From an uncultured Candidatus Saccharibacteria bacterium (lineage in GTDB: Bacteria; Patescibacteriota; Saccharimonadia; CAILAD01; GCA-016700035): 64,000 nucleotides of DNA. The position numbers and the translations under genes are program-made. The DNA lies in assembly GCA_964583675.1 (NCBI GenBank), contig CAZOVH010000001.1, forward strand, positions 81,754 through 145,753, in the 5' to 3' direction. A model generated the notes under the pieces. That model was not told where the DNA came from and did not search any database. It saw nothing but the letters and a program-made list of their open reading frames with translations. Of the stretch, positions 41,875 to 63,074 are shown piece by piece; positions within the stretch are counted from its first letter, which is position 1, and every line of letters starts with the position of its first letter.

Positions 41875-41900
41875 CAGGGCTAATGTGAGCCTTAATCACA

Positions 41901-42566: not shown

Positions 42567-42632
42567 TCACAGTTTGCCCTCAGTATTCTTTTTTCGCTAT
42601 AGTGATTGCAACACTTACTAAAAGGAAAACTT

Positions 42633-43319: not shown

Positions 43320-43388
43320 CCAAGCTAGCTCAAACCTAGAAAAACTGTAAAAATCAGGTATAATATTCCAGTTCGACCTCAGCTATCT

Positions 43389-43479
<91 letters not shown>

Positions 43480-45781: not shown

Positions 45782-46042
45782 TTAGTGCTTACGAAATCGC
45801 TTCCAAAATAGCAGAGTAGCTACCGGTAAAAGAGCTAATAAAATCAGGAGTATCCACGCCAAGAGGGTAGGGGAGCAGACCGGTGCTGGAGCTCCTATCA
45901 TCTCGCATTGAACCCCAGTACAATCTATCGGTGGCGATACACAGTTTTTAAAGTCATAACTCCACCATATTTGTAACATCACCCAAAACACAGGCACATA
46001 GCTTACGGCAGTAATAAGATATGCTTTTTTGAGAGGCTTCAT
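45782..46042 (-). CDS. small membrane protein (86 aa), coupled to upstream SBP gene
   Basis: 4-nt overlap with the stop of 46039..47391. Two hydrophobic helices, Trp- and Cys-rich. Confidence 0.4.
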   Translation of the reverse strand: MKPLKKAYLITAVSYVPVFWVMLQIWWSYDFKNCVSPPIDCTGVQCEMIGAPAPVCSPTLLAWILLILLALLPVATLLFWKRFRKH

Positions 46043-47391: not shown

Positions 47392-47457
47392 TACAACTAT
47401 TGTACCAAACCAAAAACGCCCCAAGGGGCGCATTGGCTTCTATGATAAAGGTTTTAC

Positions 47458-47835
47458 TTAAAACTGCGCGAGTACGAAGTTTACAATTGCGTAGCCAAGG
47501 AGCGCTACAACAATACCAACCACCGCATAAAGAATGGTGTCTTTAGCGGCCTGGGTGTTTTTAGAATCTCCACCGGAAAGAACATAACGCAAGCCGCCAA
47601 CTACCAGCATAATAACTGCAGCAACGCCTACGATGTAGAGTAGTATGTTCGTAACACGCCCCACAGCCTGCGGGACAGTTAGGGGACTAGCCGGACCACA
47701 CTCTACGCCGCTGTTCAGGCCGCCAGCTGGATCACCGCACGCAGCCAAAGCACGCCCTGGTAGCTGTAATACTGCGGAGACAGCAGATGCACCCAAGACC
47801 GATACCTTTAAAACTGAGTTGCTAGTAAACTTCAC
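47458..47835 (-). CDS. TrbC/VirB2-like pilin (125 aa)
   Basis: Signal peptide, Cys pair, two TM helices and the C-terminal motif NTQAAKDTILYAVVGIVVALLGYAIVNFVLAQF. Confidence 0.6.
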   Translation of the reverse strand: MKFTSNSVLKVSVLGASAVSAVLQLPGRALAACGDPAGGLNSGVECGPASPLTVPQAVGRVTNILLYIVGVAAVIMLVVGGLRYVLSGGDSKNTQAAKDTILYAVVGIVVALLGYAIVNFVLAQF

Positions 47836-47850
47836 GAAAACCTAGGATTT

Positions 47851-48228
47851 TTACGCTGCAAACTGACCGAGTACAAAGTTAACAATCGCATAGGCAAGAA
47901 GGGCTACAACGATACCGATAACCGCATAAAGAATGGTGTCTTTAGCAGCCTGGGTGTTTTGTGAGCTACCACCAGAGAAGATGTAACGGAAACCACCAAC
48001 GATGAGCATAATCACCGCAACTACACCAATAACAAAGAGCATGGTGTTGGTGATGGTTTGAATATTTGCTACAAGATCAGTCTGCTGATCGTCACCCTTA
48101 GCAGCACTTGCACCTTCGTTAATTCCGCCTACTGCGGCTGAAGCGTGTCCTGCAAGTGAAGCTGCCACTACGGCATTACCAGCCAGCACGAGTGAACCTT
48201 TTTTAAGTAAATCTTTTGCATTACGCAT
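47851..48228 (-). CDS. TrbC/VirB2-like pilin paralog (125 aa)
   Basis: Same architecture and a near-identical C-terminal motif (NTQAAKDTILYAVIGIVVALLAYAIVNFVLGQF). Confidence 0.6.
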   Translation of the reverse strand: MRNAKDLLKKGSLVLAGNAVVAASLAGHASAAVGGINEGASAAKGDDQQTDLVANIQTITNTMLFVIGVVAVIMLIVGGFRYIFSGGSSQNTQAAKDTILYAVIGIVVALLAYAIVNFVLGQFAA

Positions 48229-48363
48229 ATTGTGTATTGTCTCCTTGACTTCTAATAATAGCTAAGTGGGCGAGTGCACACTACTAGGCACATTCTACTG
48301 CAAGGAGAGATATATCAGCAAGCGTTATGGGCAAAATTCTTATGCTTGCACTAAGAAAAGTCT

Positions 48364-48924
48364 TTAACGGAACTGGGCACTTACAAAGCTTATGATGGCC
48401 GTCCCGAGCAGTGCAACGCCCACGCCAATGACTGCGTAGAGAATCGCATCTTTTGCTGTCTTCGTCTTACCAGGATCACCAGCAGATGTTACGTACAGGA
48501 TTCCGGAAACGATAATCATAATCACCGAAGCCGCGCCAATCACCCACAAGAATAGCTGAATGCCAGAATTAACCACGCTTTGAACATTTGTAGCACCCGC
48601 AACAACCGGCAAGAAGAAATCAACAACTGCACGCGCAATTATCGCAATCACAAAACCAATTACGGTATAAATAATTGACTGAATTGCCAGCTTAGTTCGG
48701 TCAGGACGTCCGGCAGAAATTACAAACATAAAACCCGAGTACACAATCATTACTACGCCAACTACACCAACTACCCAAAGTAGGAAAGTAAAAAGATTAT
48801 TTACCAGCTGGGGAAGTGTGGCTGGACCACTGGCAAACTGAGTCGGTTTATACGTTGGCAAAGGCAAATTCGTCGCCTCTGCCGCGACATACAGCTTAAT
48901 CCCTAGTTCCTGAAAAACATTCAT
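48364..48924 (-). CDS. tandem double-domain VirB2-like pilin (186 aa)
   Basis: Two consecutive pilin-like units (RTKLAIQSIIYTVIGFVIAII... and KTKTAKDAILYAVIGVGVALLGTAIISFV). Confidence 0.55.
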   Translation of the reverse strand: MNVFQELGIKLYVAAEATNLPLPTYKPTQFASGPATLPQLVNNLFTFLLWVVGVVGVVMIVYSGFMFVISAGRPDRTKLAIQSIIYTVIGFVIAIIARAVVDFFLPVVAGATNVQSVVNSGIQLFLWVIGAASVIMIIVSGILYVTSAGDPGKTKTAKDAILYAVIGVGVALLGTAIISFVSAQFR

Positions 48925-48929
48925 GCCAT

Positions 48930-49790
48930 TTATCCCGTTATTACTCTGCCAATTAAACTAAATATCAGACTAACAGAAGCAACTCCAAGTAAGCCGATTA
49001 CCGCATACGTAATGATCTTACGGGCGGACTGAATAGATTGTGGGTTTCCAGCAGCGGTCATCATTCTTATACCACCAACAATTATCATCGTTACAGCCAG
49101 CGCGCCACCTATAAATTGTATGTACTGCCAAGCTGCCGCAATCAACTCAAGGATGGTGTTTTGATCAAAGTTATTGAGATCTACCCCTAAAAAGCGTCCT
49201 CCGCCAGTCACACCAATAAGATCGAGCGTTACGCGGGCTGCAAAGAAGAGCGCAATGCTCGAAGCGGCCAACGTAATACGTTTCTTGCCAGCCTTAAGTG
49301 CTTCTGGCGATGCACCACCGGTAATAACCTGCACCATGCCAAGCCCAATCATAATCGCAAAGACAATTACGCCAATATTCAAAATATAGTTTGTGAGATT
49401 TTCTACTATTGACTGAATCGCAGTCTGGTCATTGCCTCCAGTACACAGAGTAGACACAAAGCCACTACTAATAATTTGCCCATCAGCCTTAATGTCGTTA
49501 CACGTACCCTTAACAGACTGTGGGTTGTTGAGTCGCTCATTTTCGGCATTCGTACTTGTGCCATTACCAACTGGCTCGCTCCGAGCTGGACCTTTCGTTC
49601 CTGGAGGGAGATTCTCAGAACATACCAGCGCACCATCAGCGCCTTCTTTATATGTTCCGGCGGCTCCACCCGTCAAAGTACAGGGCTGTCCAGCTAGCTT
49701 TGCAGGGTCGGCATATGCCACTGGCGCAGTATATATATGTAGGGCGAGAAGGAGAGTGGCTGGCAATAAGTACGCAAGGCGGCTTTTCAT
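48930..49790 (-). CDS. secreted Cys-containing domain fused to two VirB2-like pilin units (286 aa)
   Basis: Signal peptide, an extracellular domain of about 120 aa with 4 Cys, then two pilin-like TM hairpin units (KKRITLAASSIALFF..., ARKIITYAVIGLLGVASVSLIF). Confidence 0.5.
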   Translation of the reverse strand: MKSRLAYLLPATLLLALHIYTAPVAYADPAKLAGQPCTLTGGAAGTYKEGADGALVCSENLPPGTKGPARSEPVGNGTSTNAENERLNNPQSVKGTCNDIKADGQIISSGFVSTLCTGGNDQTAIQSIVENLTNYILNIGVIVFAIMIGLGMVQVITGGASPEALKAGKKRITLAASSIALFFAARVTLDLIGVTGGGRFLGVDLNNFDQNTILELIAAAWQYIQFIGGALAVTMIIVGGIRMMTAAGNPQSIQSARKIITYAVIGLLGVASVSLIFSLIGRVITG

Positions 49791-49832
49791 GTCCCTTATT
49801 ATAAGCGGGTTTGGTATAATTTCGGTAGGGTA

Positions 49833-52800
49833 ATGAATATTCTTTCCAAAAAACTGAATATATTTCAGCAGGGGGCGCTGTTTGGCGCTGTTTTTTTCCT
49901 TTTATTTTTAGTTTCTATTTTAGTTGCGCCATCAGCGAAAGCAGGACCAAATAGCCCTACTGAATATGAAGGGTCTGATTCTACTCAATGCCAGTGGGTG
50001 GCCGACTCAAAAATTGTCTGCGGTACAGGGGAGTGGTGGTTTGATATTAATCAATCAGTATCTCTTGGCTATCCGGTATATAAAAGTTCTGACACCTCTA
50101 ATTCGTACATAGTTTTTGATAGCAATGGTGAAAATGGTGAGCTCACAAAAGACCCTGCTCAAAAAACAAACGGGACTGATGCATTTTTAGGAGAAAAACA
50201 GGTACGTAATAATCGCCTGTGGGCAAATGACGACAACTCTAGCGACCCAGTTGATAACGGCATGAGTGCACCACCTAACGGTGAGCATTATTATTGTGGC
50301 CTAAAATCCAAGACTGAAGAGGAATGCTTCGATGGGAGGGGCGGCTCACTTATAAAAGTCACTCAAGATCAGGGCGATAAAATTACGGCCATGCGCGATC
50401 AAATAGAAGAAACAATAGGTTCAGAAGAAGATTGCACAGAAGATGCAGGCTCATTAGGTTTTGTACTGTGTCCAATACTGAGCACCACACGCAATGCGGT
50501 TGGTGCACTCATTGGAGACGGAACGGGTAAAGGGTTTCTAGTCGAACTACTTACTATAAGACCCTTAAGCTCCACGAATACGCCAGAGCTCTACAATGGG
50601 TGGCAGGCTGTAAGAAATATTGCATTAGGCCTATACATTTTAGTCTTTGTATTAATTATTTTTGGTAACGGTATTGGCTATGACCCCTACACGATTAAGA
50701 GAGCGCTGCCTCGACTGGCAGCCGGCGTTGTTTTAACATTTGCCTCTTGGTGGATCATGCAAACACTTGTAGATCTATCAAACCTTGTAGGCAATGTTAT
50801 CCCCGCATTTGTGGCACAGATTTCAGGTAATGCCGGAATTGCAGACTACGCAATCGACCTAAACCCTGCCCTTGCCTTGAGCTCCGTAATCCTCCTAATT
50901 GTGGTTGCTTTTATCGCCCTTGGAGCCTTGCTAGTTGGTCTTGCCGGTTTAATTATGCGCATCGTGATTATTTATGCTCTCGTACTTTTAGCCCCTGTCG
51001 CGTTTATTGCCTGGGTACTCCCAAACACAGAAGGCCTCTTTAAGAAGTGGTGGAAAAACCTTATTAAGGTACTCATGATGTTCCCGATAGTTACAGGCAT
51101 GCTCTCTCTTTCATTGTTCTTCCAGACCATCCTACTCAATACGCAAACAGACGCTGCTGGCAACAGTAATGGATTAGGAGGGTCAGCCTCCAACTCGGTA
51201 ACCGGTATTGTTGGTATGCTTGCACCACTCATAGCAATTATCATGATCCCTAAAACCTTTAAATGGGGCGGTGAAGCCTTTGCTGCAGCAGCTGGATATA
51301 TGGCAGGAAAGGCAAGTGGAGTTGCAGGTAAAATATCTGATGCACCCAAAACAATCGGAGGCAAAGCTGCAGGTAGTGCAAAAGAACGTATGCTCGCAAG
51401 CGACAAAACTGCTGCCCTCACTGGCGCAATGGCCTCTAGTCGATTGGGTCGACTTGCGGGCGGTAAAGCCGCCATGAGATCAAGTGGTAGAGCAAGAAGC
51501 AGGGTTATTGGCGAGGCAGAAAGCCTAACAAAGAATATGACAAACGACCAGCTTGAAAAGATCGCTAAAACCGGCACACAAGAAGAGAGAATTGCCGCAA
51601 TTGGCCAGCTCGCAAAACGCAAGGATAGAGGTAAGCTCGCCTCCTTATCGCAGGCAGGCGGTAAAACTGCAAGAGCTTATGACGAAGCTAGTAGTAGGCA
51701 TGCTGGTGAGTTTGGAGGCAATGCTGACCTGCGCCGCATCGGCGGTAAATTCACGAACGTTGGAGACATGTCTACCGAAGATGCGGCCGGAATGAATGCA
51801 GACGGTTTCGCCGCAGGACTCGCAACAGGTGCAATATCTCACGCCACTGCGCAAGCAATCTACAATAATGACCGTACCCGAGCATCTCTTTCGCCTCAAA
51901 AACTACATGACCTTACAACATATTTATCATCTGGAGGAACAACCGACAAGGATGGAAATAGAATTACAGTACAAGGCAGAAACTCTCGCGTTGCCGATGC
52001 AAAAATAGAAGCAACCACTCCTAGTTACAATGCAGAAGGCAAGCATGTCGGCCAGAGAGTTACGTTTAAGGGTGATTCTGAATTACAAAATGCCCTCAAT
52101 GTAGCTGGATCAAATCGAGGCGTAACCACCACATCTGCTAGTGGTACTCCTCAGCCCACAGCAACTACCGCTCCAGCACGTCCAGCTCCACCACCACCTC
52201 CACCATCAGGAGGAACTCCAACTTATACTACCCCTGCGGGCGCACCAACCTACACAACAACGGGTACGCCAGTTCCACCACCACCAAGTGGCAATGTGCC
52301 AGTTTGGAGCAATCCAACTGCACCACCACCTCCGCCGCCAAGCGGTAGCACTGGTGGAACACCTCCGCCTTACACAGGCCCAGCTGCGCCATGGCAGCCG
52401 GCTCCCGGTTCGCAAACACCGCCTCCACCACCAAGTGGAGGGGCACCTACCGGCACGAACGGTGGAGGCACAGTCATAAACAATGTCACCAACGAAAATT
52501 CAACGACGAATAACAACTCGACCACCAACAACGTAAAAACCGTTCTCAACAACAACGGCATACCAAGTTCGATTGCGCTTGGTGCAGCCACACAGCTTGG
52601 AAGTGCCAAAAATCGCTTCGGAGCAGGATCAGCCGAACACGACGGCCTAGCCGGCATTGAAAGTAAGCTCAATGATCTGGGTCGTATGATTCAGTCCGGA
52701 TCACTCAGTCAAACTCGATTGCGAGAAAATATCCGTGACATCCACCGCGATATTGATGACCTACCACCAGGTGCACATGACCAACAAGATAACCTACGTG

Positions 52801-52847
52801 GCGTCCTCACAAACATCGAGCGCAATGCCACCGACGACGAGGCGTAA
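49833..52847 (+). CDS. VirB6/TrbL/PrgH-like polytopic T4SS channel protein with long Pro-rich and Asn/Thr-rich C-terminal extension (1004 aa)
   Basis: Signal peptide, an extracellular Cys-containing domain of about 250 aa, at least 6 TM helices (residues about 270-480), then a disordered tail with PPPPPSG repeats. Confidence 0.55.
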   Translation: MNILSKKLNIFQQGALFGAVFFLLFLVSILVAPSAKAGPNSPTEYEGSDSTQCQWVADSKIVCGTGEWWFDINQSVSLGYPVYKSSDTSNSYIVFDSNGENGELTKDPAQKTNGTDAFLGEKQVRNNRLWANDDNSSDPVDNGMSAPPNGEHYYCGLKSKTEEECFDGRGGSLIKVTQDQGDKITAMRDQIEETIGSEEDCTEDAGSLGFVLCPILSTTRNAVGALIGDGTGKGFLVELLTIRPLSSTNTPELYNGWQAVRNIALGLYILVFVLIIFGNGIGYDPYTIKRALPRLAAGVVLTFASWWIMQTLVDLSNLVGNVIPAFVAQISGNAGIADYAIDLNPALALSSVILLIVVAFIALGALLVGLAGLIMRIVIIYALVLLAPVAFIAWVLPNTEGLFKKWWKNLIKVLMMFPIVTGMLSLSLFFQTILLNTQTDAAGNSNGLGGSASNSVTGIVGMLAPLIAIIMIPKTFKWGGEAFAAAAGYMAGKASGVAGKISDAPKTIGGKAAGSAKERMLASDKTAALTGAMASSRLGRLAGGKAAMRSSGRARSRVIGEAESLTKNMTNDQLEKIAKTGTQEERIAAIGQLAKRKDRGKLASLSQAGGKTARAYDEASSRHAGEFGGNADLRRIGGKFTNVGDMSTEDAAGMNADGFAAGLATGAISHATAQAIYNNDRTRASLSPQKLHDLTTYLSSGGTTDKDGNRITVQGRNSRVADAKIEATTPSYNAEGKHVGQRVTFKGDSELQNALNVAGSNRGVTTTSASGTPQPTATTAPARPAPPPPPPSGGTPTYTTPAGAPTYTTTGTPVPPPPSGNVPVWSNPTAPPPPPPSGSTGGTPPPYTGPAAPWQPAPGSQTPPPPPSGGAPTGTNGGGTVINNVTNENSTTNNNSTTNNVKTVLNNNGIPSSIALGAATQLGSAKNRFGAGSAEHDGLAGIESKLNDLGRMIQSGSLSQTRLRENIRDIHRDIDDLPPGAHDQQDNLRGVLTNIERNATDDEA

Positions 52848-52849
52848 TT

Positions 52850-53689
52850 ATGGGGCAATATAAAGTACCTCAAAACGTAGAGAGCGAAGACAGACTCCTA
52901 GGCCCCTTAACGATGAAGCAATTCATCTACGCTATCATTGGGCTCGGGTGGGGATTCCTTATTTGGCGTATTCTTTCACCGGGAGGCACTGCTGCAATCC
53001 CTATCATGCTACTACTCATTGTGCCGGTTTCTGGTTTTATGCTCCTCTTGGCATTCGGTAAAAGGGAGGAGCAGAGTTTTGAGAATTACCTCATCGCCCT
53101 CATTCGTTTTAGTGTTGTACCGCGCAAACGCATTTGGCTAAAAGACGACTTTAAGGGTGAGGTGATTATCGATGCACCGCCGCCGCCAAAGCCCATGGCG
53201 CCAACTAAAGAAGATATCGCCCATGTTCACAGTCGACTTCAGCAGCTCTCGCTAGTTGTAGACACGCGTGGACACGCCAAGACTCCAGATGTTCAGCTGG
53301 CCGACCAAACAAATCGGGCTGCGGAATTTTCTCAACGCGTTTTTACACCGCCAGAACTCCAAAAGCCCATCCTGGAAGGGGGAGTACAAGAACAAGATGA
53401 CGTATTAGCAACAACAGAAGCGTCAGCCGCTCAAGCGCAAAAAGTTGATGAGCTACTACAAAACCAAGAGTACTCGATTCGTGAAGAGGCTATGAAAAAG
53501 ATGACTCAGGCCGTCGAAAATCCCGAATCTCAGGCCGTCGAAACCCCTACACAACCCTCCCAGCCACCAGCTGATAATGCTATACTGAAAAAGGTTATGG
53601 ATGCACCCCACCTAAGTGTGGCCCAGGTAGCCCAAGTGGCTAATCGTGGGCAACTCGCACAAGGCCAGGAAATCCAAATCCAACAATAA
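52850..53689 (+). CDS. PrgI/VirB3-like T4SS membrane protein (279 aa)
   Basis: N-terminus MGQYKVPQNVESEDRLLGPLTMKQFIY plus two TM helices, matching the conserved PrgI-family start (VP.D.E.ED...GP.T.RQ). Confidence 0.5.
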   Translation: MGQYKVPQNVESEDRLLGPLTMKQFIYAIIGLGWGFLIWRILSPGGTAAIPIMLLLIVPVSGFMLLLAFGKREEQSFENYLIALIRFSVVPRKRIWLKDDFKGEVIIDAPPPPKPMAPTKEDIAHVHSRLQQLSLVVDTRGHAKTPDVQLADQTNRAAEFSQRVFTPPELQKPILEGGVQEQDDVLATTEASAAQAQKVDELLQNQEYSIREEAMKKMTQAVENPESQAVETPTQPSQPPADNAILKKVMDAPHLSVAQVAQVANRGQLAQGQEIQIQQ

Positions 53690-53835
53690 AACGTATAAAA
53701 CCAAGACAGAAGACCCTCTAAATAACAAAATCTTTGAAGGTTGCTGTCTTTTTTTGTTATGATGATATATTCGTCACTCACCAGTAATGCAGTGATGAGG
53801 GTGTTCAAAAGTAAAAGAGGGAGAGAGAAGTTCGC

Positions 53836-54753
53836 ATGCCACAGGAGGCTGCCAAAACTCCACAACAAATTGAATATGAAAAGTCGATCACTCCCGCCAA
53901 GGAGCCGAAAGACCAACGTACCAGCACGCAAAACCACCTGATGTTCACCGAAATTAAGGATGGCATCGTCGTAATGCGTGATGGCTCTTTGCGTATGGTC
54001 GTACTTGCGAGTGCACTCAACTTTGACCTCAAAAGCCCCCAAGAACAGGATGCTATCGAGTACGCATACCAAGGCTTCCTTAATGGCTTACACTTTCCAA
54101 TTCAGATTGTTGTACGCTCACGTAAGCTCGAGCTTGACGGCTACCTTGAAAACCTTGAAGTTCTTCAAGCCAACCAAGAAAACCCTCTTCTAGCTGGACT
54201 AATGGAAGATTATATTTACAATATTCGCGGCCTCTTAGAACAAGTAAACATCATGAATAAAGAATTCTATGTTGTTGTACCGTATTATCTGGATGTTACC
54301 TCTAAAAAGAAAGATAATGCCGGCTTTAAACTTGCGAGCTTATTTAAGACCAACACCGATACCATGCAAACCACGGAGATGTTTGAGCAGCGTAAGCGAG
54401 ACTTAATTCAACGTACCAACCTGGTTGCCCAAGGCTTGGCTCAGCTTGGTATTCGAGCAGCTGTTCTCTCCACACAGGAGATTACTGAGCTCTTCTATAC
54501 GGCGTATAACCAAGAAGAAGCTACCAATCAAAATCTTGTAGATATCGAGCAAATGACGACGCCGGTTGTAGAACGTAGTGATGCCGATCCAGAACCATAT
54601 AGCGGCGCAACCTATCATGAGCCAGAGCCTGACGATCTATACTCTGCTGCCACGCAAATACCTCAGCCAGCACCAGCACCAACGCAACAAACTACGCAGC
54701 CACCAGTAGCTCAGCAGCCACCGCAAAATCCACTAATTGGGGGAGGGGTATAA
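53836..54753 (+). CDS. hypothetical T4SS-associated protein (305 aa), translationally coupled to virB4 (TAATG)
   Basis: SD GAGGGAGAGAGAAG. The stop overlaps the virB4 ATG. Gln/Pro-rich C-terminus. Confidence 0.4.
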   Translation: MPQEAAKTPQQIEYEKSITPAKEPKDQRTSTQNHLMFTEIKDGIVVMRDGSLRMVVLASALNFDLKSPQEQDAIEYAYQGFLNGLHFPIQIVVRSRKLELDGYLENLEVLQANQENPLLAGLMEDYIYNIRGLLEQVNIMNKEFYVVVPYYLDVTSKKKDNAGFKLASLFKTNTDTMQTTEMFEQRKRDLIQRTNLVAQGLAQLGIRAAVLSTQEITELFYTAYNQEEATNQNLVDIEQMTTPVVERSDADPEPYSGATYHEPEPDDLYSAATQIPQPAPAPTQQTTQPPVAQQPPQNPLIGGGV

Positions 54754-56660
54754 TGGCGCGCAAACCAAAAGTAGATCCAGCTCAGCAGGCAGCCATCGAC
54801 ATGGCTGCGGCCCAACAGCAAGAAGCTGAACGTGCCTATCGCGAAGGAATCTTAACTCTACGTGACATTATTGCGCCAAGCTCGTTTACTATAGAGAACA
54901 ATTATCTCATTATTGGCACTCGCTATGTGCGCACATTGTTTGTGTACGGCTATCCACGCACCCTATTTACCGGTTGGCTCTCGCCAATTATCAACCTCGA
55001 TGAGGTTATTGATATTTCGCTCAATATCATGCCGGTCGAAAGTCGTGTAGTACTTGAGAACCTCAAGAAAAAAGTAGGTCAACTCGAAGCCTCTGTGCAA
55101 ATTAACGCCGAAAAAGGTAAGATTCGCGATCCAGGACTAGAAGCTGCCATTGGTGACGCCGAAGAACTTCGTGACAAGCTCCAAGTAGGTGAAGAACGCT
55201 TCTTCCGTTTTGGGCTTTACATCACGCTCTACGGAAAGGATATCGAGGAACTCGATCTTATTCAACGCAAAATTGAATCCATCCTCGGAACAAGCCTCGT
55301 CTACACAAAACCAGCTAGCGTTCAGATGGAGCAGGGCTTTAACTCGACGCTCCCAATTGGCACCGATCAGCTTGGCATCTACCGCAACATGAATACCGGC
55401 TCACTCTCAACCAGTTTTCCGTTTACCACCGCCGAACTCTCTCGCAATGAAGGGGTTATGTATGGCTTAAACCGCCACAACAACGGTCTAGTGCTATTTG
55501 ATCGATTTAGCTTAGAAAATGCCAATATGGTTGTATTTGCAAAGTCTGGTTCTGGTAAAAGCTTTACCGTAAAGCTCGAATGCTTACGCTCACTTATGTT
55601 GGGTGCGGAAATTATTATCATCGATCCAGAGAACGAGTACCGCACACTGTGTGACGCAGTAGGCGGGAGCTACATTCACTTGTCGCTCGCCAGCAACACG
55701 CGCATTAACCCGTTTGATATTCCAACCACGGTTGATCCCGAGGAAGCCGACAACGCACTGCGCGCAAACATCATCATGCTGCACGGCTTACTGCGCCTGA
55801 TGTGTGGCAAGCTTGAGCCAGCAGAAGAAGCAGATTTGGATGTTGCGCTTATCAATACGTATGCCCAAAAAGGCATCACCAACGATCCGCTGACACACCG
55901 TAGCCAGCCACCTGTAATGAGCGATTTGTATAACACACTTATCACAATGGGTGGCACCGGCCCAGCAATCGCCGCTCGTCTACGTCGCTACACCGAGGGT
56001 ACGTTCTCTGGAATCTTCTCGCAACAATCAAACGTTCAACTCGACAATAAATTTGTAGTCTTTAATATTCGCGACCTAGAAGATGAACTACGCCCAATTG
56101 GCATGTATATCACCCTCAACTACATTTGGAACCGCGTAAAAACCGACCGACGTAAGCGCATCTTAGCTGTAGACGAAGCTTGGCAGCTCATGAAGCATCC
56201 AGACTCAGCATCGTTTATGTTCTCAATCGCTAAGCGCGCTCGTAAGTATTACCTCGGCCTCACAACCATCTCGCAGGACGTGGAAGACTTCTTAAATGAT
56301 CGCCTGGGACGTGCCGTAGTAAACAACAGCTCTTTGCAAGTTCTCCTAAAACAAGCACCGTCCGCTGCCGATGTTGTTGCCGAAACATTCAAGCTAACGA
56401 GCGAAGAAAAAAACCGCCTTACTCAGTTCCCGGTAGGAGAGGGATTATTCTTTGCTGGTTCTAACCACGTGGTTATTCGCATTTTGGCGAGCCCCATGGA
56501 AGAGCAGCTCATCACCACCAATCCGCAGCAACTCCTTGAGCGACAAATGCGCGACCAAGAAGAAGCTCAATTACAAACCGCAGAACCGGCCCCAGAATTA
56601 CAACAGGCAGTTCCAGAACCACCGGCAACCTACCAGCAGCCAGGAGGGCAGGTTAGCTAA
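54753..56660 (+). CDS. virB4: VirB4/TraE/PrgJ-family T4SS ATPase (635 aa, Gram-positive type)
   Basis: N-terminal APSSFTIENNYLIIGTRYVRTLFVYGYPR, Walker A VVFAKSGSGKSF, Walker B ILAVDEAWQLM. Confidence 0.85.
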   Translation: MARKPKVDPAQQAAIDMAAAQQQEAERAYREGILTLRDIIAPSSFTIENNYLIIGTRYVRTLFVYGYPRTLFTGWLSPIINLDEVIDISLNIMPVESRVVLENLKKKVGQLEASVQINAEKGKIRDPGLEAAIGDAEELRDKLQVGEERFFRFGLYITLYGKDIEELDLIQRKIESILGTSLVYTKPASVQMEQGFNSTLPIGTDQLGIYRNMNTGSLSTSFPFTTAELSRNEGVMYGLNRHNNGLVLFDRFSLENANMVVFAKSGSGKSFTVKLECLRSLMLGAEIIIIDPENEYRTLCDAVGGSYIHLSLASNTRINPFDIPTTVDPEEADNALRANIIMLHGLLRLMCGKLEPAEEADLDVALINTYAQKGITNDPLTHRSQPPVMSDLYNTLITMGGTGPAIAARLRRYTEGTFSGIFSQQSNVQLDNKFVVFNIRDLEDELRPIGMYITLNYIWNRVKTDRRKRILAVDEAWQLMKHPDSASFMFSIAKRARKYYLGLTTISQDVEDFLNDRLGRAVVNNSSLQVLLKQAPSAADVVAETFKLTSEEKNRLTQFPVGEGLFFAGSNHVVIRILASPMEEQLITTNPQQLLERQMRDQEEAQLQTAEPAPELQQAVPEPPATYQQPGGQVS

Positions 56661-59600
56661 TGCTTCGCCTGGAGGGTGACTCACAGGACCCACTTACTAG
56701 CTCTCGACACTACAAGGATATTAAGAGCGCCAGTAAGCAGTCCAACACAGGGCCAGGTTCTATGGCCGACAAGGCTGCCAATGGGCATATAGATAGTCTT
56801 TCTTCAGCAGGCAAGAAAGGTAGTGAAGCCGCTACAAAAGGTGCTTCTAGTGCTAATAGTACGGCGTCGAAAGGTGCTTCCAGTGCCGGCGCCAGTGCTT
56901 CGAAAGAAGCCGGGAAAGCCGCAGCTGATGCAGCAGCTAAGAAATCCATTTCCAAAGCAGTAGGAAAATCACTTGGTAAAGGCCTAAATGTAAAAGGCGA
57001 TATTGATGATGTAAAGAGAACAGCCAAAGAAGATGGTGCTGCTGCGGCTGCGGCTGCGGCAGGCCTTAAAGCCGCCGAAACGGTTGCCTCAAAAGTACCA
57101 ATCGCCTCGCAAGTTGCGACTGCCATCCGCGCGGGACAGGCCGCCCTGGCTAAAGTAGGCATCAACATTAAAGATCAGTACATTATGTACGCACTCTTGT
57201 TGGCTCCAATTCTCGCCCTTGTGCCAGTGATGGTTTTTGCACTCGTTGTCTTCTTCGCCTGGAAAAACCCTCAAGCCATCCTGAAGCTATCATTTACTAA
57301 TTTTAAAACTTTTGTTGGCGCAGCCCAGTCACTCGTAATCGAAAACGGAGGTGCCTCAAAGATGGCTTACGAGGTTGAAGTAGGAGGCAACCGAGCAGTC
57401 GCAGCTCCAGGTGATGTAGCGAAGCCAGAGGAAGGCACATATGAATATAAGTTGGCCCAAATAGACTGGGAAAAGGCAAAATATCAAACCCTCCCACTTG
57501 ATAGTCGCTGCGAGATCAAAACGAAAAAAGTCGTTTCCGTACTTGATGGAAAAGAACGTTCAGTTATCGAATCTGTAGAGCTAAATACAAACCCCGGCAA
57601 AGACCTGCAGGGAGTGGCTAGAGCTAACTGCATTAATAATACATATCCGATTTGGAACACCATGATGCGATCTCAGTTTGTGCGTGATGGCGTGAATAAA
57701 AACCTCAATGTACGCTACGCCTATGCTGAGCCGCAAGATTCAACTACATTGAGCGAACCTTCTGACGAATTCTCAACCACCCTCCGCGACAAAACTCTCA
57801 CCAGAATATGGAATCGTGGCCAAGCTATCAATAAACCCATTCAATCCACACCTGAAGAGGTTACGGCAAATGATGAAGAAGTAAAACGCTTCTTCACTAA
57901 CACCCGAGAAGTTCAAAAGTACGCAAAAGAAACTAATATCGCAAAATATAGCGACGAAGTAATTAGCTGTGCTGATATGTATGTCCCGAAAGGTGATAGC
58001 TACTACCAAAAAGATATAGACAAAATGAATCATGACTTGGCATGTGGCATTAACCCAAAAGATATTCTATTGTATACGACTAGCCCGTCTGAAGACCTCA
58101 TTAATGACTCGGACCCATTAATCGCCATTAAACCAAAGCGAGCAGCACTCAATGTAGTTTGCGATCTCTACTATAATCTTCTCGCCCCAGACAGTGACTA
58201 TGCTCCGGCAGTAGATAAGTACCGACAAAAAGTAAAAGACCGCATCAACTCTGCGGCTGTTGCTGGCTGGCAAGCTATGACATATGCCGATACGCATCAA
58301 AAAAGATTTATAGATCTTAAAGAGCTGGGCGGAGACTTTTATAAAATTTCCGGTATACAAGAAGGTCAAGAATATAACTATGCACTGGATTACCGTAAAA
58401 ATGGAGTTGCACTCGAGCCTGATGCCATCTCCCGCATTGTTGGCTACTACAACAAGCAAGCAGACGCCATTCCAGCCATCCAGCAAGAAAAGCAATATCA
58501 AGATGCATTAAACCTAGTCTTCACATACGTGACGTCAGGCGGCGATGCCTCTCCTTGTGATGCAGCTCGAGATACTGGCGAATTCGATAACACAAATAAT
58601 AATGATCCTCAGAGAAACGCAAAAATTAGCACTTTTTATAGTGATGTGTATCCCGCATTCAAAAAGGCAATCGCTGGAATAGATTTCTACGCCAACCCAT
58701 CACAAAGCAAATCTGTAAGCCAAATTTATAAAGACCTAACCTACGAAGACCTCCGTTTCCGATTAATTCGTATTGAGTCTAATGCTGCCACCGCCGGCAC
58801 CGAAGATGGCCCTCAAAACTTTAATCGTATGAATTTCGGCATGAAAGCCTACACAAACGCTTTTACTCTTTCAATGGGTGGAAACTTTCTCACTCAAAAC
58901 GAAGCTATCAGCCGCGATGAATCAACTCGAGTAGCGAGATACTATGACGATAAAACAAAGGGGATTGCCTGGCGCTTCTTTAACCTGGATAACCCCGGCT
59001 CATTTGCCAGCCGACTCGCTGTAGCCTCGACTGATAAGCCACAAAATATACCTGGCAACATCACAGGTACTTTGGCCTATATTATGAATCCCATCAGGAA
59101 CGCTGCGGGAGAAAATGGCACGCTAACTGCATTCTTAACCGGAGAAAGCCGAGTGGCCTCAGCCAGCTCCGTATATGATTCGGCTAATCTCAAGCTCGAT
59201 CCGGCTGGTATGCCAGAAGCATTTAATCAAATCAACCCAATCGAAAACGCTCGATACATTGAAAGTATAAAGAAGAATGATCCAACTCTTGCCACCGAAC
59301 TTGCTGGCTACGATCAGTGTTTTAAAGAGTTCCTTCCGAGCCGGTTCCATCTACTAAATCCACCTCCAGACAAAGTAGATCTATACAAAAACGTATGTAC
59401 GCCGCTCCTAGACAGTACTGCCACACGAGATCCAAATAGTCTCATCCTCCGCTACCGAGCCTATCACTTTCATATGCTCCAAGCCGATGCACTCGTATAT
59501 TTGTCAGACCCCAATAAGGAAGATCCCAACTTCAGCGCACCAGAGGGCGGAAGTACAACAAACCCTGTCGCAACTACCCCCACCGACGGAACACCAACCA

Positions 59601-60076
59601 ATCCGAGTGGTGACACCTCGGCATTACAATGCCCACCAGGAACTACCGACGCGGGTGTCGGTGAAAAATTTGGCGTCGGCCGCGTGCTCATGCATCGACT
59701 TAGGCTCTGTAACGTACAGGGGATTACCGTAAATGTTTCTATTGCCAATTCACTAAATGCTATGCTTACAGAAATGAAAGGAGCTAGTATTAATTTGGGC
59801 GGTTGGGGCTATCGAACATTTGATAAACAGGTTGAGCTCAGAACTACAAATGGCTGTCCCGACACCTACAATAGTCCGGCAAGTACGTGCGGAACTCCAA
59901 CTGCACGTCCAGGACAATCGAATCATGAAAATGGAGAGGCGATCGATTTCACTTCCGGAGGGTCAACATTGCGTAGCGGAACTCCAGGCTTCAACTGGCT
60001 TAAAGCAAACGCCGCACGCTACGGGTTTAAAAATCTGCCTTCAGAATCATGGCACTGGTCGATTAATGGAAAATAA
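56660..60076 (+). CDS. large membrane-anchored surface protein with C-terminal LAS/M15 (VanY-like) peptidoglycan peptidase domain (1138 aa)
   Basis: Ala/Lys/Ser low-complexity N-terminus, TM at about residues 180-205, and a C-terminal SNHENGEAIDF (SxHxxGxAxD) plus ESWHW (ExxH) motif. Confidence 0.55.
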   Translation: MLRLEGDSQDPLTSSRHYKDIKSASKQSNTGPGSMADKAANGHIDSLSSAGKKGSEAATKGASSANSTASKGASSAGASASKEAGKAAADAAAKKSISKAVGKSLGKGLNVKGDIDDVKRTAKEDGAAAAAAAAGLKAAETVASKVPIASQVATAIRAGQAALAKVGINIKDQYIMYALLLAPILALVPVMVFALVVFFAWKNPQAILKLSFTNFKTFVGAAQSLVIENGGASKMAYEVEVGGNRAVAAPGDVAKPEEGTYEYKLAQIDWEKAKYQTLPLDSRCEIKTKKVVSVLDGKERSVIESVELNTNPGKDLQGVARANCINNTYPIWNTMMRSQFVRDGVNKNLNVRYAYAEPQDSTTLSEPSDEFSTTLRDKTLTRIWNRGQAINKPIQSTPEEVTANDEEVKRFFTNTREVQKYAKETNIAKYSDEVISCADMYVPKGDSYYQKDIDKMNHDLACGINPKDILLYTTSPSEDLINDSDPLIAIKPKRAALNVVCDLYYNLLAPDSDYAPAVDKYRQKVKDRINSAAVAGWQAMTYADTHQKRFIDLKELGGDFYKISGIQEGQEYNYALDYRKNGVALEPDAISRIVGYYNKQADAIPAIQQEKQYQDALNLVFTYVTSGGDASPCDAARDTGEFDNTNNNDPQRNAKISTFYSDVYPAFKKAIAGIDFYANPSQSKSVSQIYKDLTYEDLRFRLIRIESNAATAGTEDGPQNFNRMNFGMKAYTNAFTLSMGGNFLTQNEAISRDESTRVARYYDDKTKGIAWRFFNLDNPGSFASRLAVASTDKPQNIPGNITGTLAYIMNPIRNAAGENGTLTAFLTGESRVASASSVYDSANLKLDPAGMPEAFNQINPIENARYIESIKKNDPTLATELAGYDQCFKEFLPSRFHLLNPPPDKVDLYKNVCTPLLDSTATRDPNSLILRYRAYHFHMLQADALVYLSDPNKEDPNFSAPEGGSTTNPVATTPTDGTPTNPSGDTSALQCPPGTTDAGVGEKFGVGRVLMHRLRLCNVQGITVNVSIANSLNAMLTEMKGASINLGGWGYRTFDKQVELRTTNGCPDTYNSPASTCGTPTARPGQSNHENGEAIDFTSGGSTLRSGTPGFNWLKANAARYGFKNLPSESWHWSINGK

Positions 60077-60079
60077 CGC

Positions 60080-61990
60080 ATGAAAATAAGAAAACTACAT
60101 TTCAATAAAGTAAAAAATAGATTTATTCGTTTGACGTATATCGTTTCTACATTACTTCTTATTGTGACACCAGCTCAGGCCGCAAGCGAACAGCGCAGAG
60201 ATATTGAGCGTACTCCTTTTTATGACAAGAACGCCGAACTAATTTGCGGAGCTGCGGGGACAACACAAGCAGCAGGAGGCGGGGGACTTATCGTTGGGGG
60301 AACAGTCTATTATCTCGGTGATTCAATCGGCGAAGGAGTTAAGACTCCTCTTGAAAAAAATCTTACTGCAGCTGGCTATAAGGCCGTCGTAAATGCAAGT
60401 AATTCTCGCTCTATCAGTGGTCCGGGAAGAGATGGATCGTCTGGCTTGGAAGCGGCAGCGAAAGACGCCGCCGTGATTCAAGGCGCTCAAGTGGTAGTTA
60501 TTGAGCTCGGCACAAATCCAGAGTCGAATGGTGATTTCGCAGGCAATCTTAATAACCTGGTCACACAAATTAAAACGGCCGGCCCACAGGCAAAAATCTA
60601 TCTCGTAGATGTTGCCGTAACGGCCGAACAGGCTGCTCGACTCGGATCAGCTAATGTAAATAAGGCCATTTATGCAAAGGCCGCAGAGCTCGGTACGCCA
60701 GTGATAAGTAGATTTAAAATTTATTATCCTGGGGGTAATCCGGAAACCTTTGAAAATACTGCAAGCCCCGCATTACCATTTGATGCCGCTGGAATTCATA
60801 GCCCTAACTCGCAAGGTTATGAAGCGCTTGCGGGAGTCATCCAGACCAGCATCACCACCTCGAGTGCACTCGCAACACCAAGCACATCCGACCCCTGTCA
60901 GTGTCCAGTTTCAGGAGGCGCCGGAGGAAGCGCAGCTACAATTAATCTTGCCGGTAACGACAATGTCGAGAAAGCATTTAACTTCTTCGTAAGCAAAGGC
61001 TTCTCACCGCAACAATCTGCCGGGATAGTAGGCAATCTGATTGCAGAATCGGGTGTAAATCCAAAACGAGTGCAGAGTACACCGACACCTGAAGGGGATA
61101 AAGATAATATTACAGTTAATAATAAAACGGGCTACGGCATCGCCCAATGGACCTCTTCTGGACGACAACAAGGTTTGGTTGATCTCGCTCGTTCGCGGGG
61201 CATGACTATCGAGGGTGATCTTGCACTTCAGCTCGACTATCTCATGATTGAGCTTACTGTTGGCTATAAAGACGTATATGATGCCATCAAACTCTCTGCA
61301 GATCTTAAGGCGGCTTCAGACGTATTTATGACTAAATTTGAGCGCCCTGCAGATCAAAGTGAAACTGCTCGGCAAAAACGTGCCAGCATGGGACAACAGG
61401 TACTAGATCTGTATGGCAACGGCGCAAGCGCCAGTGGTGCTCTCATTAGCGGCGCAACAAACTGTAATACTGGAGCGGGAGGTCAGGCGGCCGGCTTCGT
61501 AGGCTTCCCACTCCAAACTACTAAAGCGCGAATGACCGAGCTAAATGGCGGTCAGTTTAAGAATGGAGTGATGGGACAAGGCGGACACCCGTATGCGGCT
61601 CACGACATTATGGCCGACCCTGGAACTCCGGTAGCTGCAATTCTGTCGGGTAAGGTTGTACAAGTAAGCACAGATAAGTGCCCGGGGAGACTTATCGCAG
61701 TTTGGAGTGAACAGGTAGGCGTTACCGTCGCATATCTACACATGTCTATTGAGCAAACAATAGTGAAAGAGGGTGATTCTATCGCCGAAGGTCAAATTAT
61801 CGGCTTTGTTGGGCCACCAGCAGCTGGCTGCGGAACCCCACACCTCCATATTGATGCCAATACTACCAACCGTAGAATTGGGTGTAAGCGTGAAAGTTGC
61901 TCTACAGAAAATAAAGCACTCTTCCAGGCTGGGAGCGATAAAATTGGGTTACCAAAATCACTTTTCGATAGCTATCAGCGACTACCATAA
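60080..61990 (+). CDS. three-domain cell-wall hydrolase: SGNH/GDSL hydrolase + phage-tail-lysozyme-like + M23 peptidase (636 aa)
   Basis: Signal peptide; GDSIGEG (SGNH block I); GNLIAESGVNP...GYGIAQWTSSGR (lysozyme-like); HPYAAHDIM...HLHID (M23 HxxxD and HxH). Confidence 0.6.
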   Translation: MKIRKLHFNKVKNRFIRLTYIVSTLLLIVTPAQAASEQRRDIERTPFYDKNAELICGAAGTTQAAGGGGLIVGGTVYYLGDSIGEGVKTPLEKNLTAAGYKAVVNASNSRSISGPGRDGSSGLEAAAKDAAVIQGAQVVVIELGTNPESNGDFAGNLNNLVTQIKTAGPQAKIYLVDVAVTAEQAARLGSANVNKAIYAKAAELGTPVISRFKIYYPGGNPETFENTASPALPFDAAGIHSPNSQGYEALAGVIQTSITTSSALATPSTSDPCQCPVSGGAGGSAATINLAGNDNVEKAFNFFVSKGFSPQQSAGIVGNLIAESGVNPKRVQSTPTPEGDKDNITVNNKTGYGIAQWTSSGRQQGLVDLARSRGMTIEGDLALQLDYLMIELTVGYKDVYDAIKLSADLKAASDVFMTKFERPADQSETARQKRASMGQQVLDLYGNGASASGALISGATNCNTGAGGQAAGFVGFPLQTTKARMTELNGGQFKNGVMGQGGHPYAAHDIMADPGTPVAAILSGKVVQVSTDKCPGRLIAVWSEQVGVTVAYLHMSIEQTIVKEGDSIAEGQIIGFVGPPAAGCGTPHLHIDANTTNRRIGCKRESCSTENKALFQAGSDKIGLPKSLFDSYQRLP

Positions 61991-62004
61991 AAAGAAAGGG
62001 AACT

Positions 62005-62793
62005 ATGAATAAACTCTCCACTCAAGCCAAGCTGATTATCGGACTCTCATTCGTAACCCTAGTATTGCTCTGCGTGATGATATATGTGCAGTTCGTTCAG
62101 TTTCGTATTGTTAAATCTACCCCCGATACAAACAACTACCCAAGCACAATGGGCCTACTCGTATTGGAGTTTAATGAAAAATTAGACGCCAAGGCTATTC
62201 AGGATGCATACAATAAAGATGCAGCAAGTGTTATAAAGTTCAGTTTTGATAGCCCAGCCTATATAGAAGTGTATGATAAGACTCTCAAGATAACGATTCA
62301 GGAAACTGCTAAAGAAGGTAAGTACAAACTTCTACTTAATAATATTAAGTCTGAAGATGGAAGCATCTTTAAGCGAGAGATTCCTTTTGTCGTTAAGAAT
62401 ATTGCATACAATGACATGCCTGAAGAAACCCAGAAACTTTTTAATGAATATGCCTCAGAGGGAGAGACCCTACCTCAAGATCCAATCGTGGGAGTACTCC
62501 CTTATCAGACAGATAAGTATAAAATTAGTTATGTTTTTCCAGAAGAAGACGTCGAGATACCTGCAACAATAACTATTACCATGAAATTCTTTGAGCCGGG
62601 TGACAATGCATTACCAGAAACGCCAGCCCAAAGACAAGCTTACTTAAACGACCTCAGAAAATATCGGACCGAAGCATTAACCTACCTGAAAGAAAAAGGT
62701 ATAGATATTAATAACTATGTCATTAAATACACAGAGTTTGATCTACAAAACGAATTTCCGACTGGCTACGTCGCTCAACCAGAAACCGAATAG
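62005..62793 (+). CDS. membrane-anchored extracellular protein (262 aa); positional VirB8/PrgL-like candidate
   Basis: N-terminal TM anchor plus an extracellular domain, placed after the hydrolase genes as prgL is in pCF10-type loci. Low GC (about 38%). Confidence 0.35.
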   Translation: MNKLSTQAKLIIGLSFVTLVLLCVMIYVQFVQFRIVKSTPDTNNYPSTMGLLVLEFNEKLDAKAIQDAYNKDAASVIKFSFDSPAYIEVYDKTLKITIQETAKEGKYKLLLNNIKSEDGSIFKREIPFVVKNIAYNDMPEETQKLFNEYASEGETLPQDPIVGVLPYQTDKYKISYVFPEEDVEIPATITITMKFFEPGDNALPETPAQRQAYLNDLRKYRTEALTYLKEKGIDINNYVIKYTEFDLQNEFPTGYVAQPETE

Positions 62794-62801: not shown

Positions 62802-63074
62802 TTATCCAATACGTATAAAAATTTTTTCTAGTTTTTGACCAGTTTTCTTTACTATTTCGCGTTCTATCTGAATTTTACGCATGCGGATTTCACTAGCCTC
62901 AACCGGGTGGCCAACGGTTATGCGCAGTAAACCCTCGTTAAAACTCACCGAATCAACTGTCACTCCCGACCGTCTTTTTATAATCTCTTTAACTGTCTTA
63001 AAGAATTGTAAAATATCAAACTGTGCATCTAAATTCTTACGCGACAGACTGTCGCCAATTCTTTCAAAACTCAT
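62802..63074 (-). CDS. DUF721-family small protein (DciA-like), downstream of recF
   Basis: 90 aa with a 4-nt overlap with the recF stop. Typical recF-DUF721 synteny. Confidence 0.45.
   Translation of the reverse strand: MSFERIGDSLSRKNLDAQFDILQFFKTVKEIIKRRSGVTVDSVSFNEGLLRITVGHPVEASEIRMRKIQIEREIVKKTGQKLEKIFIRIG

Follow-up and report, generated by a model that had tools for sequence, protein, structure and literature searches.

A Saccharibacteria chromosomal type IV secretion locus with two-unit VirB2-like pilin genes

Introduction

Wang et al. (2023, Cell) described in Southlakia epibionticum (ML1 hereafter) an 'apparent T4SS (SEML1_0006-0019)', that is, a type IV secretion system (T4SS), which was essential in transposon sequencing (Tn-seq). 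This system is closest to Gram-positive conjugative systems, includes an essential series of predicted pilins and is without recognisable coupling and relaxase proteins. Here we analyse a locus of this kind at positions 47458-62793 of a 64,000-nucleotide stretch of DNA (the window; positions 81,754 to 145,753 of contig CAZOVH010000001.1, assembly GCA_964583675.1) from an uncultured Candidatus Saccharibacteria bacterium. An earlier model-made reading of the letters and open reading frames (ORFs), without database searches (the sequence-only reading), had taken the locus for a Gram-positive-type T4SS with VirB2-like pilins that probably does not serve conjugation.

On the ML1 map (Wang et al. 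2023, supplement), dnaA, dnaN and recF are followed by SEML1_0004, 0005 (exported, immunoglobulin (Ig)/E-set plus OmpATb-N-like), 0006 (a lysozyme-type hydrolase), 0007 (1113 amino acids (aa), DD-peptidase/M15B), 0008 (VirB4), 0009 (293 aa, unannotated), 0010 (PrgI), 0011 (998 aa), 0012 (NTF2-like, non-essential), 0013 (VirB6-like), 0014-0019 (six PF18895 pilins), Hsp20, comFC and a tRNA gene. By Tn-seq, SEML1_0004-0011 and 0013-0019 are essential, all six pilins among them.

Quinonero-Coronel et al. (2025, Microb Genom) placed Patescibacteria VirB4 proteins in a distinct clade related to the MPF_FATA class, and found homologs of TrsD, PrgI/VirB3, VirB6 and VirB2 to be widespread, relaxases to be scarce and the loci to lie in proximity to dnaA. 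Pilin arrays, each with 2-11 genes, numbered 441 and were found above all in Saccharimonadia. According to a 2025 review, Gram-positive T4SSs lack VirB2, with these systems as the one exception; the sequence-only reading was right to call such pilins unusual, a point already in print. Further afield, archaea have the chromosomal Ced and Ted systems, which combine VirB2, VirB4 and VirB6 and lack a relaxase; the Ced system serves to import DNA (Beltran et al. 2023, Nat Commun).

Results

The locus corresponds gene by gene to the ML1 system

The locus consists of eleven closely packed genes with verified ORF coordinates, in two divergent groups of four (minus strand) and seven (plus strand). We found that the window reproduces the ML1 map in reverse, gene by gene, with the flanking Hsp20, comFC and tRNA genes included. 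Both loci have the same order and neighbours, lie close to the origin and have no relaxase or type IV coupling protein (T4CP) nearby. The locus, collinear with SEML1_0005-0019, is the Saccharibacteria chromosomal T4SS already described, and the window holds one more instance of it.

The window differs from ML1 in gene and domain content. In ML1 the NTF2-like 0012 lies between two VirB6-like genes (0011 and 0013), whereas the window has a single VirB6-like gene and lacks the NTF2-like one; it has four pilin genes with six units, whereas ML1 has six genes; and its hydrolase combines GDSL, lysozyme and M23 domains, whereas that of ML1 combines glucosaminidase, lysozyme and Cys-protease domains.

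A search with the VirB4 protein of a species-representative genome collection gave 571 confirmed relatives. The best 80 of them (L001-L080, the related loci below) are 63-83% identical and come nearly all from metagenome-assembled genomes of Candidatus Saccharibacteria/Saccharimonadia, in agreement with the lineage guessed by the sequence-only reading. Profile hidden Markov model (HMM) matches, the synteny of the VirB4 relatives and the literature all bear out its view of a pilin-bearing Gram-positive-type T4SS that is probably not for conjugation. Taken as a whole, the locus is very probably a resident Saccharibacteria chromosomal T4SS, orthologous to SEML1_0005-0019, that acts as a conduit for contact with the host and not in conjugation.

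The locus lies beside the origin cluster and has no sign of mobility

Across the 80 related loci, the conserved order is pilins on the minus strand, then virB6-prgI-trsD-virB4-large protein-hydrolase on the plus strand, then recF on the minus strand. Searching these loci with the window proteins returned VirB4 in 80, the 305-aa protein in 78, PrgI in 69, the VirB6-like protein in 54, recF in 54 and pilins in 41. Beyond recF we found dnaN and dnaA in L042 and dnaN in L003, and the order dnaA-dnaN-recF-T4SS is identical in ML1. The GC content of the locus is 0.455-0.502 in 2-kb bins, the last bin, into which recF also falls, being the exception at 0.428; the window mean is about 0.49.

The scan of window ORFs, which took in every ORF of at least 330 aa, found no relaxase, T4CP/VirD4 or integrase, and the sequence-only reading had likewise seen none in the window. 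None of the three is encoded in the 47 kb to the left of the locus, no oriT was found in the 64-kb window, and an Rfam scan of the window returned tRNAs only.

These data bear on whether the locus is the transfer module of a Gram-positive-type integrative and conjugative element (ICE), with its relaxase, coupling protein and integrase in another part of the element or just past the window edge. The VirB4 falls in the CD1110 conjugal-transfer family, only 1.2 kb is seen to the right of the locus, and the gene order resembles the pCF10 and pGO1 modules. However, recF flanks the locus on the right, with dnaN and dnaA after it in relatives; 54 of the 80 Saccharibacteria loci, with VirB4 at 63-83% identity, keep this site and order; base composition shows no break at the locus, and the 47 kb to the left is free of mobility genes as above. 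Moreover, the ML1 ortholog is essential for growth, unlike a mobile element, and of 109 relaxases in Patescibacteria just 15 are encoded close to virB4 (Quinonero-Coronel et al. 2025). An ICE is thus extremely unlikely. Because of the recF/dnaN/dnaA context, the shared site across genera, the native GC content and the absence of relaxase, T4CP and integrase among the scanned ORFs, the locus is, as judged from genomic context, a resident, origin-proximal chromosomal system and not an ICE.

The minus-strand genes encode VirB2-like pilin units

All four minus-strand genes matched Pfam PF18895 (T4SS_pilin) above its gathering score in a local hmmscan, which substantiates the four tandem, divergently transcribed VirB2-like pilin genes of the sequence-only reading. 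Pilin 1 (PF18895 3e-11; TrbC 8e-4) has transmembrane (TM) segments at residues 64-82 and 104-122 and is 49-63% identical to the distal pilins of L003 and L004. Pilin 2 (PF18895 2e-12) matches TrbC/VirB2 (PF04956) at 2.8e-6, its 27.9 bits being exactly the cut-off, and is 65% identical to pilin 1 across the unit. The PF18895 match falls into two stretches both in pilin 3 (4.3e-20), which has four TM segments, and in pilin 4 (1.6e-18). The six units can be aligned almost without gaps, and a hydrophobic TM helix pair is present in every one. Hence, the pilin genes are of the VirB2/TrbC type, with a two-helix hydrophobic hairpin of about 70 aa that matches pilin HMMs.

By inspection, pilins 1, 2 and 4 have signal-peptide-like N-termini ending in AxA; pilin 3 has none, and the 5-nt gap upstream of it leaves no room for one. 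The ectodomain of pilin 4 is present, over about 100 residues, as the sequence-only reading had it; the description as Cys-rich does not hold, there being only four Cys within that length.

One could propose that the pilins form only an adhesive surface fibre, an attachment organelle through which nothing is translocated. It has been published that conjugative pili act mainly as attachment organelles, one of the pilins here carries an extra ectodomain with Cys residues, and the operon includes a gene for an anchored Ig-like protein. We consider this improbable, since Saccharibacteria are known to attach and move with type IV pili and dedicated adhesins, and since a complete translocon (VirB3, VirB4, VirB6-like and TrsD-like proteins) is conserved and essential.

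Small two-TM proteins also lie beside VirB4 in the ICEs of the likewise monoderm Mycoplasma (Mbov_0395 and Mbov_0397). The NCBIfam Mbov_0395 pilin-like family matched pilin 2 (9.5e-9) and pilin 4 (4.5e-6) below its curated cut-off (34.8 versus 40 bits), and the VirB4 matched the Mbov_0397 family at 1.6e-81, also below the cut-off (274 versus 590 bits). The Mycoplasma elements differ in being true ICEs with a T4CP, and a review calls their small TM proteins VirB3-like. The likeness hints that small pilin-like proteins may be native to some monoderm MPF_FATA systems rather than borrowed from diderms; their origin is a question left open by Quinonero-Coronel et al. (2025).

Pilins 3 and 4 join neighbouring paralogs, and the array keeps six units

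Pilins occur in 42 of the 80 related loci, which together with the window gave 43 arrays and 242 pilin genes. The modal array has six single-unit genes (25 of 43 arrays). Genes with two units are rare (6 of 242), and two of these are in the window, whose pilins carry 1+1+2+2 units, that is, six units across four genes.

The sequence-only reading had seen two pilin units in each of two genes and had taken them for internal duplications; the two units stand, the duplication does not. The two halves are 36% identical in pilin 3 and 24% in pilin 4, no closer than either is to other paralogs, which rules out a recent internal duplication. Instead, the units of pilin 3 are collinear with two separate adjacent genes of L003 (2570-3055 and 2277-2564), and those of pilin 4 with two further separate L003 genes (3327-3716 and 3064-3327), which abut exactly where the window gene and its L004 equivalent, also fused, run on without a break. 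By these alignments, pilins 3 and 4 are fusions of neighbouring divergent paralogs.

The fused lengths recur widely: 14 of the 15 cluster variants of pilin 3, from many assemblies, have 186 aa (the other has 188 aa), and the 286-aa length of pilin 4 is found in 11 sequence variants in public assemblies. Since they recur across many independent assemblies, these lengths are not assembly errors. Separate fusions of positions 5+4 were found in L027 and L069. In every fusion whose components could be assigned, a short pilin that lacks a signal peptide is the downstream partner. Every unit begins and ends outside the membrane, so fusion is topologically neutral.

Position HMMs were built from 23 canonical six-gene arrays, each test genome being left out of HMM building, and assigned the correct position to 134 of 138 pilin genes. 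Therefore, the six pilins are old, conserved paralogs (orthogroups). For the window, one-to-one mapping to the canonical positions gave no more than rough collinearity, every unit being drawn to positions 1 and 2; our unit mapping rests instead on the closer relative L003.

Several divergent tandem virB2 genes beside a T4SS are also found in Bartonella and Anaplasma. Those arrays are thought to serve antigenic or host-range variation, whereas here the positions are conserved orthogroups, are essential in ML1 and fuse with their neighbours, which points to non-redundant subunits. Given six conserved positions, the essentiality of all six pilins in ML1 and the recurrent neighbour fusions, we infer that the pilins would form a heteromeric assembly with fixed neighbours rather than a set of interchangeable variants, and we favour this over antigenic or host-range variation. 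Going further, to an obligate heteromeric tube of six distinct conserved subunits with fixed neighbours that is the feeding conduit to the host, is a step that we think unlikely to be right. If it were true, the fusions here (g6+g5 and g4+g3) and elsewhere (5+4) would record which subunits touch, and the tube, with its six kinds of subunit, would differ from the F, CedA1 and TedC pili, which are polymers of one major pilin.

The translocon proteins are of the Gram-positive type

The VirB4 passed the cut-off of the NCBIfam CD1110 VirB4-like family (3e-113, 379.6 versus 325 bits), covering only positions 184-732 of the 752-position profile; it also matched P-loop_TraG (1.4e-26) and, weakly, CedB (6e-11). 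On these profile matches, it is a member of the monoderm CD1110 family, in the FATA class of Quinonero-Coronel et al. (2025). The 279-aa protein, in the ortholog position of SEML1_0010, matched PF12666 (PrgI) at 2e-14, with 54.3 bits against a cut-off of 27. Hence, both the VirB4 and the PrgI/VirB3 assignments of the sequence-only reading were sound.

Its VirB6-like channel protein is less secure. The 1004-aa product has a signal peptide, an ectodomain with six Cys, five predicted TM segments and a long Pro-rich C-terminal region, and its gene occupies the position of SEML1_0011 (998 aa, 'Type IV secretion system protein'). Nine of 46 homologs in the family matched TrbL at E<=0.01 (best 7.5e-5); the window sequence itself reached E 0.05 with TrbL and E 0.022 with the CD3337/EF1877 mobilome membrane family.

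The 305-aa protein had been noted earlier as an ORF of unknown identity coupled to virB4. The coupling stands, as the stop codon of its gene overlaps the virB4 start by 1 nt, and an identity can now be offered. No match was returned by a Pfam hmmscan; the NCBIfam TrsD/TraD model gave a weak, near-full-length match (E 0.0018). In its predicted fold, modelled with database homologs, the top 14 Foldseek matches were all TrwK/VirB4 chains. Aligning its family with the VirB4 family of the locus by hhalign gave no signal (probability 0.3, with a low effective number of sequences, Neff), so the link to VirB4 is drawn from structure, and a profile search of the family against Protein Data Bank (PDB) sequences gave nothing relevant. 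As the protein is without a P-loop, we read it as a free-standing domain: on its predicted fold it is a TrsD-like component, a VirB4-N-terminal-like domain coupled translationally to VirB4. Nearly all database homologs of this protein carry the precomputed Pfam identifier PF26593.2. The Pfam scan did not return PF26593 for the window protein, and the identifier was not found in the literature; the model is probably newer than the Pfam copy scanned.

The locus has much in common with the MPF_FATA systems (pCF10 Prg/Pcf, pIP501 Tra, pGO1 Trs and the Clostridioides difficile conjugative transposon of CD1110): the VirB4 family, the PrgI/VirB3, TrsD-like and VirB6-like proteins and large wall hydrolases in the same order, with VirB1-type hydrolases (VanY/M15, lysozyme-like, M23, GDSL) downstream of VirB4. 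The order likened earlier to pCF10/pIP501-type loci is borne out for these genes. Unlike MPF_FATA systems, the window has no relaxase, T4CP or oriT, the locus is not on a mobile element, no VirB8/NTF2 protein was detected, and VirB2-like pilins are present while a PrgB-type adhesin is not.

Wall hydrolases and an Ig-like protein complete the operon

In the related loci L001-L080, a protein of about 800-1300 aa always comes directly after VirB4. In the window this is the 1138-aa protein, with a cytoplasmic N-terminus of about 175 aa rich in Ala, Ser and Lys, one TM segment (179-197), an exterior region of about 800 aa and a C-terminal peptidase. It matched VanY at 4.9e-10 (residues 1024-1124), LdcB at 3.1e-5 and D-Ala-D-Ala carboxypeptidases of the PDB at 2e-3, and its SxHxxGxAxD and ExxH motifs are intact. 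A DD-peptidase/M15B domain is also found at the C-terminus of SEML1_0007 (1113 aa). The 636-aa hydrolase, in the ortholog position of SEML1_0006, matched Lipase_GDSL_2 (9.7e-9), Phage_lysozyme2 (2.5e-32) and Peptidase_M23 (1.2e-13). The sequence-only reading had named two very large multidomain hydrolases; this fits the 636-aa protein with its three domains, whereas VanY/M15 is the sole recognised domain of the 1138-aa protein.

The hydrolase slot 3' of the ~1000-aa protein is a domain mosaic. Over 54 loci we counted Phage_lysozyme2 (27), M23 (13), GDSL (11), C39_2 (5), SLT_2 (5), Amidase_2 (4), Amidase_3 (3), Glucosaminidase (2) and CHAP (2), along with NlpC/P60 and GH3. Such variability would be expected of host-directed weapons, and with two large Sec-targeted wall-degrading proteins in the operon it speaks for an effector or toxin translocator, which would inject proteins into the host, or deliver wall hydrolases onto it, to release nutrients. 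This is the commonest speculation in the literature, and T4CP-less protein secretors are known (Ptl, Brucella VirB). However, the window showed no candidate effector/immunity pairs, the nearby genes do not include one for a coupling protein that could recruit cytoplasmic substrates, and VirB1-type hydrolases are normal in monoderm T4SSs and need not be substrates (Quinonero-Coronel et al. 2025). We regard effector export as a real possibility, though we doubt it.

The last gene of the operon encodes a 262-aa protein whose model (pLDDT 83.6) has an N-terminal TM segment, an Ig/CopC-like beta-sandwich (about residues 35-131) and a small alpha/beta domain. Its positional equivalents match Big_5/CopC and PEGA, and its counterpart is the essential SEML1_0005. 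The sequence-only reading had proposed a membrane-anchored VirB8-like protein here. The anchor is there, and VirB8 was rejected on the predicted fold, an Ig/CopC-like sandwich and not NTF2. No VirB8/NTF2-fold protein of the PrgL/TraM/TcpC type was detected anywhere in the locus.

Elsewhere in the window, two FemAB-family paralogs (28467-29666, 8.1e-35; 31111-32103, 1.3e-21) suggest a peptidoglycan with an interpeptide bridge and matter for the question of whose wall is cleaved by the M15 and M23 peptidases of the T4SS locus.

Layout of the locus and its surroundings

Coordinates are collected in Table 1. The plus-strand genes overlap at stop and start or are spaced by 2-14 nt, except that 146 nt separate the 305-aa gene from the one before it. 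By inspection, the TATAAT boxes between the pilin and VirB6-like genes lie at 49815-49820 on the plus strand (preceded by TGG) and at 49803-49798 on the minus strand, ending 12 nt and 7 nt, respectively, upstream of the two ATGs. At these distances the leaders would be very short or absent, which suggests back-to-back promoters with leaderless or near-leaderless mRNAs. A sigma-70 consensus scan found 23 promoter-like sites against 26.3 expected from shuffles, that is, no enrichment; it did not list the two boxes because it requires a -35 element, which they do not have.

Table 1. Features of the T4SS locus and its right flank (window coordinates)
Feature	Position	Strand	Length	Description
Pilin 1	47458..47835	-	125 aa	putative signal peptide and single VirB2-like two-helix unit
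Pilin 2	47851..48228	-	125 aa	putative signal peptide and single VirB2-like unit
Pilin 3	48364..48924	-	186 aa	two fused VirB2-like units, 4 TM, without signal peptide
Pilin 4	48930..49790	-	286 aa	putative signal peptide, ectodomain of ~100 aa (4 Cys), two fused VirB2-like units
Divergent intergenic region	49791..49832		42 bp	one TATAAT box per strand
VirB6-like protein	49833..52847	+	1004 aa	polytopic membrane protein
PrgI/VirB3-like protein	52850..53689	+	279 aa	2 TM and C-terminal extension
TrsD-like protein	53836..54753	+	305 aa	VirB4-N-terminal-domain-like fold (predicted), without P-loop
VirB4	54753..56660	+	635 aa	ATPase
Bitopic peptidase protein	56660..60076	+	1138 aa	C-terminal VanY/LdcB-type (M15, LAS) peptidase
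Secreted cell-wall hydrolase	60080..61990	+	636 aa	three domains: GDSL/SGNH esterase, lysozyme-like, M23 endopeptidase
Ig/CopC-like protein	62005..62793	+	262 aa	membrane-anchored
Small DUF721/DciA-like ORF and recF	62802..64000	-		origin-cluster start; SMC_N/RecF matches, weak DciA match

Between Hsp20 and the pilins (45782-47433) lies a gene for an ABC solute-binding protein (46039-47433; SBP_bac_1 8e-36), overlapped by 4 nt by an 86-aa Cys-containing membrane ORF. This insertion is common to L003 and L004; in ML1, Hsp20 adjoins the pilins. Since a terminator-like hairpin on the minus strand (47431-47416) overlaps the annotated start of the solute-binding protein, its true start may be a downstream Met. 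Eight tRNA genes lie within 4.4 kb (39065-43475), upstream of a formyltransferase gene, comFC and Hsp20; a tRNA gene likewise adjoins comFC in ML1.

Far to the left, a GC-rich island spans 15600-18200, with a GC content of 0.644 over 16100-18200 against 0.493 in the rest of the window; its 100-bp bins range from 0.59 to 0.75 between about 15600 and 18200, except for two near 0.50. Its minus-strand ORFs (17199-18197, 16415-17074 and 15443-16084) have no Pfam match, and a search of 5.8 billion proteins with the 332-aa island protein gave only 11 homologs, none of them named. Homologs (100% to 38% identity) lie at the same groEL-pgi site in related contigs, where the island is likewise GC-rich (0.61-0.65 against 0.51-0.52). 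Hence, the island is a lineage-conserved cassette rather than a one-off insertion.

Discussion

In the mechanism that we propose, VirB4, its TrsD-like partner, PrgI/VirB3 and the VirB6-like protein would form a translocon in the cytoplasmic membrane, and pilin units pulled from the membrane would assemble above it into a short tube or pilus associated with lipid. The epibiont's own wall, and probably that of the host too, would be opened by the bitopic M15 protein together with the secreted hydrolase, with the anchored Ig-like protein as an essential accessory; the mosaic of domains in the hydrolase slot speaks for action on the host wall. Such a structure would connect the epibiont to its host cell as a contact-dependent conduit, needed for epibiont growth.

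What such a conduit would carry can be approached by analogy. Like Ced and Ted (Beltran et al. 2023), the locus has VirB4, VirB6-like and VirB2-like proteins in what looks like a domesticated chromosomal system without a relaxase, in an envelope without an outer membrane. It has no meaningful sequence relationship to them beyond the VirB4 superfamily, and wall hydrolases, PrgI and TrsD are all missing from Ced. A Ced pilus is a polymer of a single pilin, and import, which is what Ced does with DNA, is for Saccharibacteria an analogy. Because of this parallel in parts, and because these organisms, as published, cannot make nucleotides, we lean towards import, with export nearly as likely. Coupling-protein-independent import of host macromolecules (DNA or nucleotides) is a tentative proposal, to which we give somewhat less than an even chance.

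Import by a different route was suggested by comF (44572-45228; TIGR00201 3.9e-25), which lies 2.2 kb from the last pilin gene: the T4SS could be a competence-type DNA-uptake system working with ComEC and ComF, as H. pylori ComB, its precedent, does. The same relative place is taken by comFC in ML1 (SEML1_0021), and comF is often near T4SS genes in class ABY1 (Quinonero-Coronel et al. 2025). However, ML1 without comEC is non-competent yet viable, while the T4SS is essential; SEML1_0021 is non-essential; and competence in Saccharibacteria depends on type IV pili. The viability of ML1 without comEC excludes uptake through ComEC as the essential role, and we judge a competence system very improbable. 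The nearby comF that prompted the DNA-uptake idea of the sequence-only reading is real, and it is ComEC-independent, Ced-type import that forms part of the explanation we favour.

Several points weigh against a heteromeric, host-contact conduit that is not conjugative. No pilus or conduit has been reported in Saccharibacteria, and no pilus of the VirB2 type for any Patescibacteria; no substrate is known, and the literature calls the role 'completely unknown'. The VirB6 assignment is weak for the window sequence. The hydrolase diversity is equally explicable by differences among the epibionts' own walls. By BLAST and position HMMs, the six units of the window are only roughly collinear with the six canonical positions, and a fusion fits a heteromer without proving one. 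The window ends 1.2 kb past the locus, the relaxase and T4CP scan covers the 64-kb window, and 5,713 VirD4-like proteins are known across Patescibacteria, mostly far from virB4 (Quinonero-Coronel et al. 2025), so that a T4CP or relaxase may lie farther off. In favour of a non-conjugative role, on the other hand, it is published that relaxases are rare in Patescibacteria and that the distant T4CP homologue of ML1 is non-essential.

The pilin arrays, the missing relaxase and T4CP and the origin-proximal position have all been published before, and credit for them belongs to Wang et al. (2023), Quinonero-Coronel et al. (2025) and the 2025 FEMS review. The system is a Gram-positive-type T4SS with pilins, essential on the host cell in the one species tested (ML1). 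To this we make modest additions: neighbour fusions that preserve six units (a 'Rosetta-stone' clue), the pilin orthogroups, the Ig-like terminal protein and the hydrolase mosaic. The conserved orthogroups argue against the published idea of antigenic variation or host range and for a heteromeric structure, and the findings from this single instance are leads for construct design in structural work on the putative pilus.

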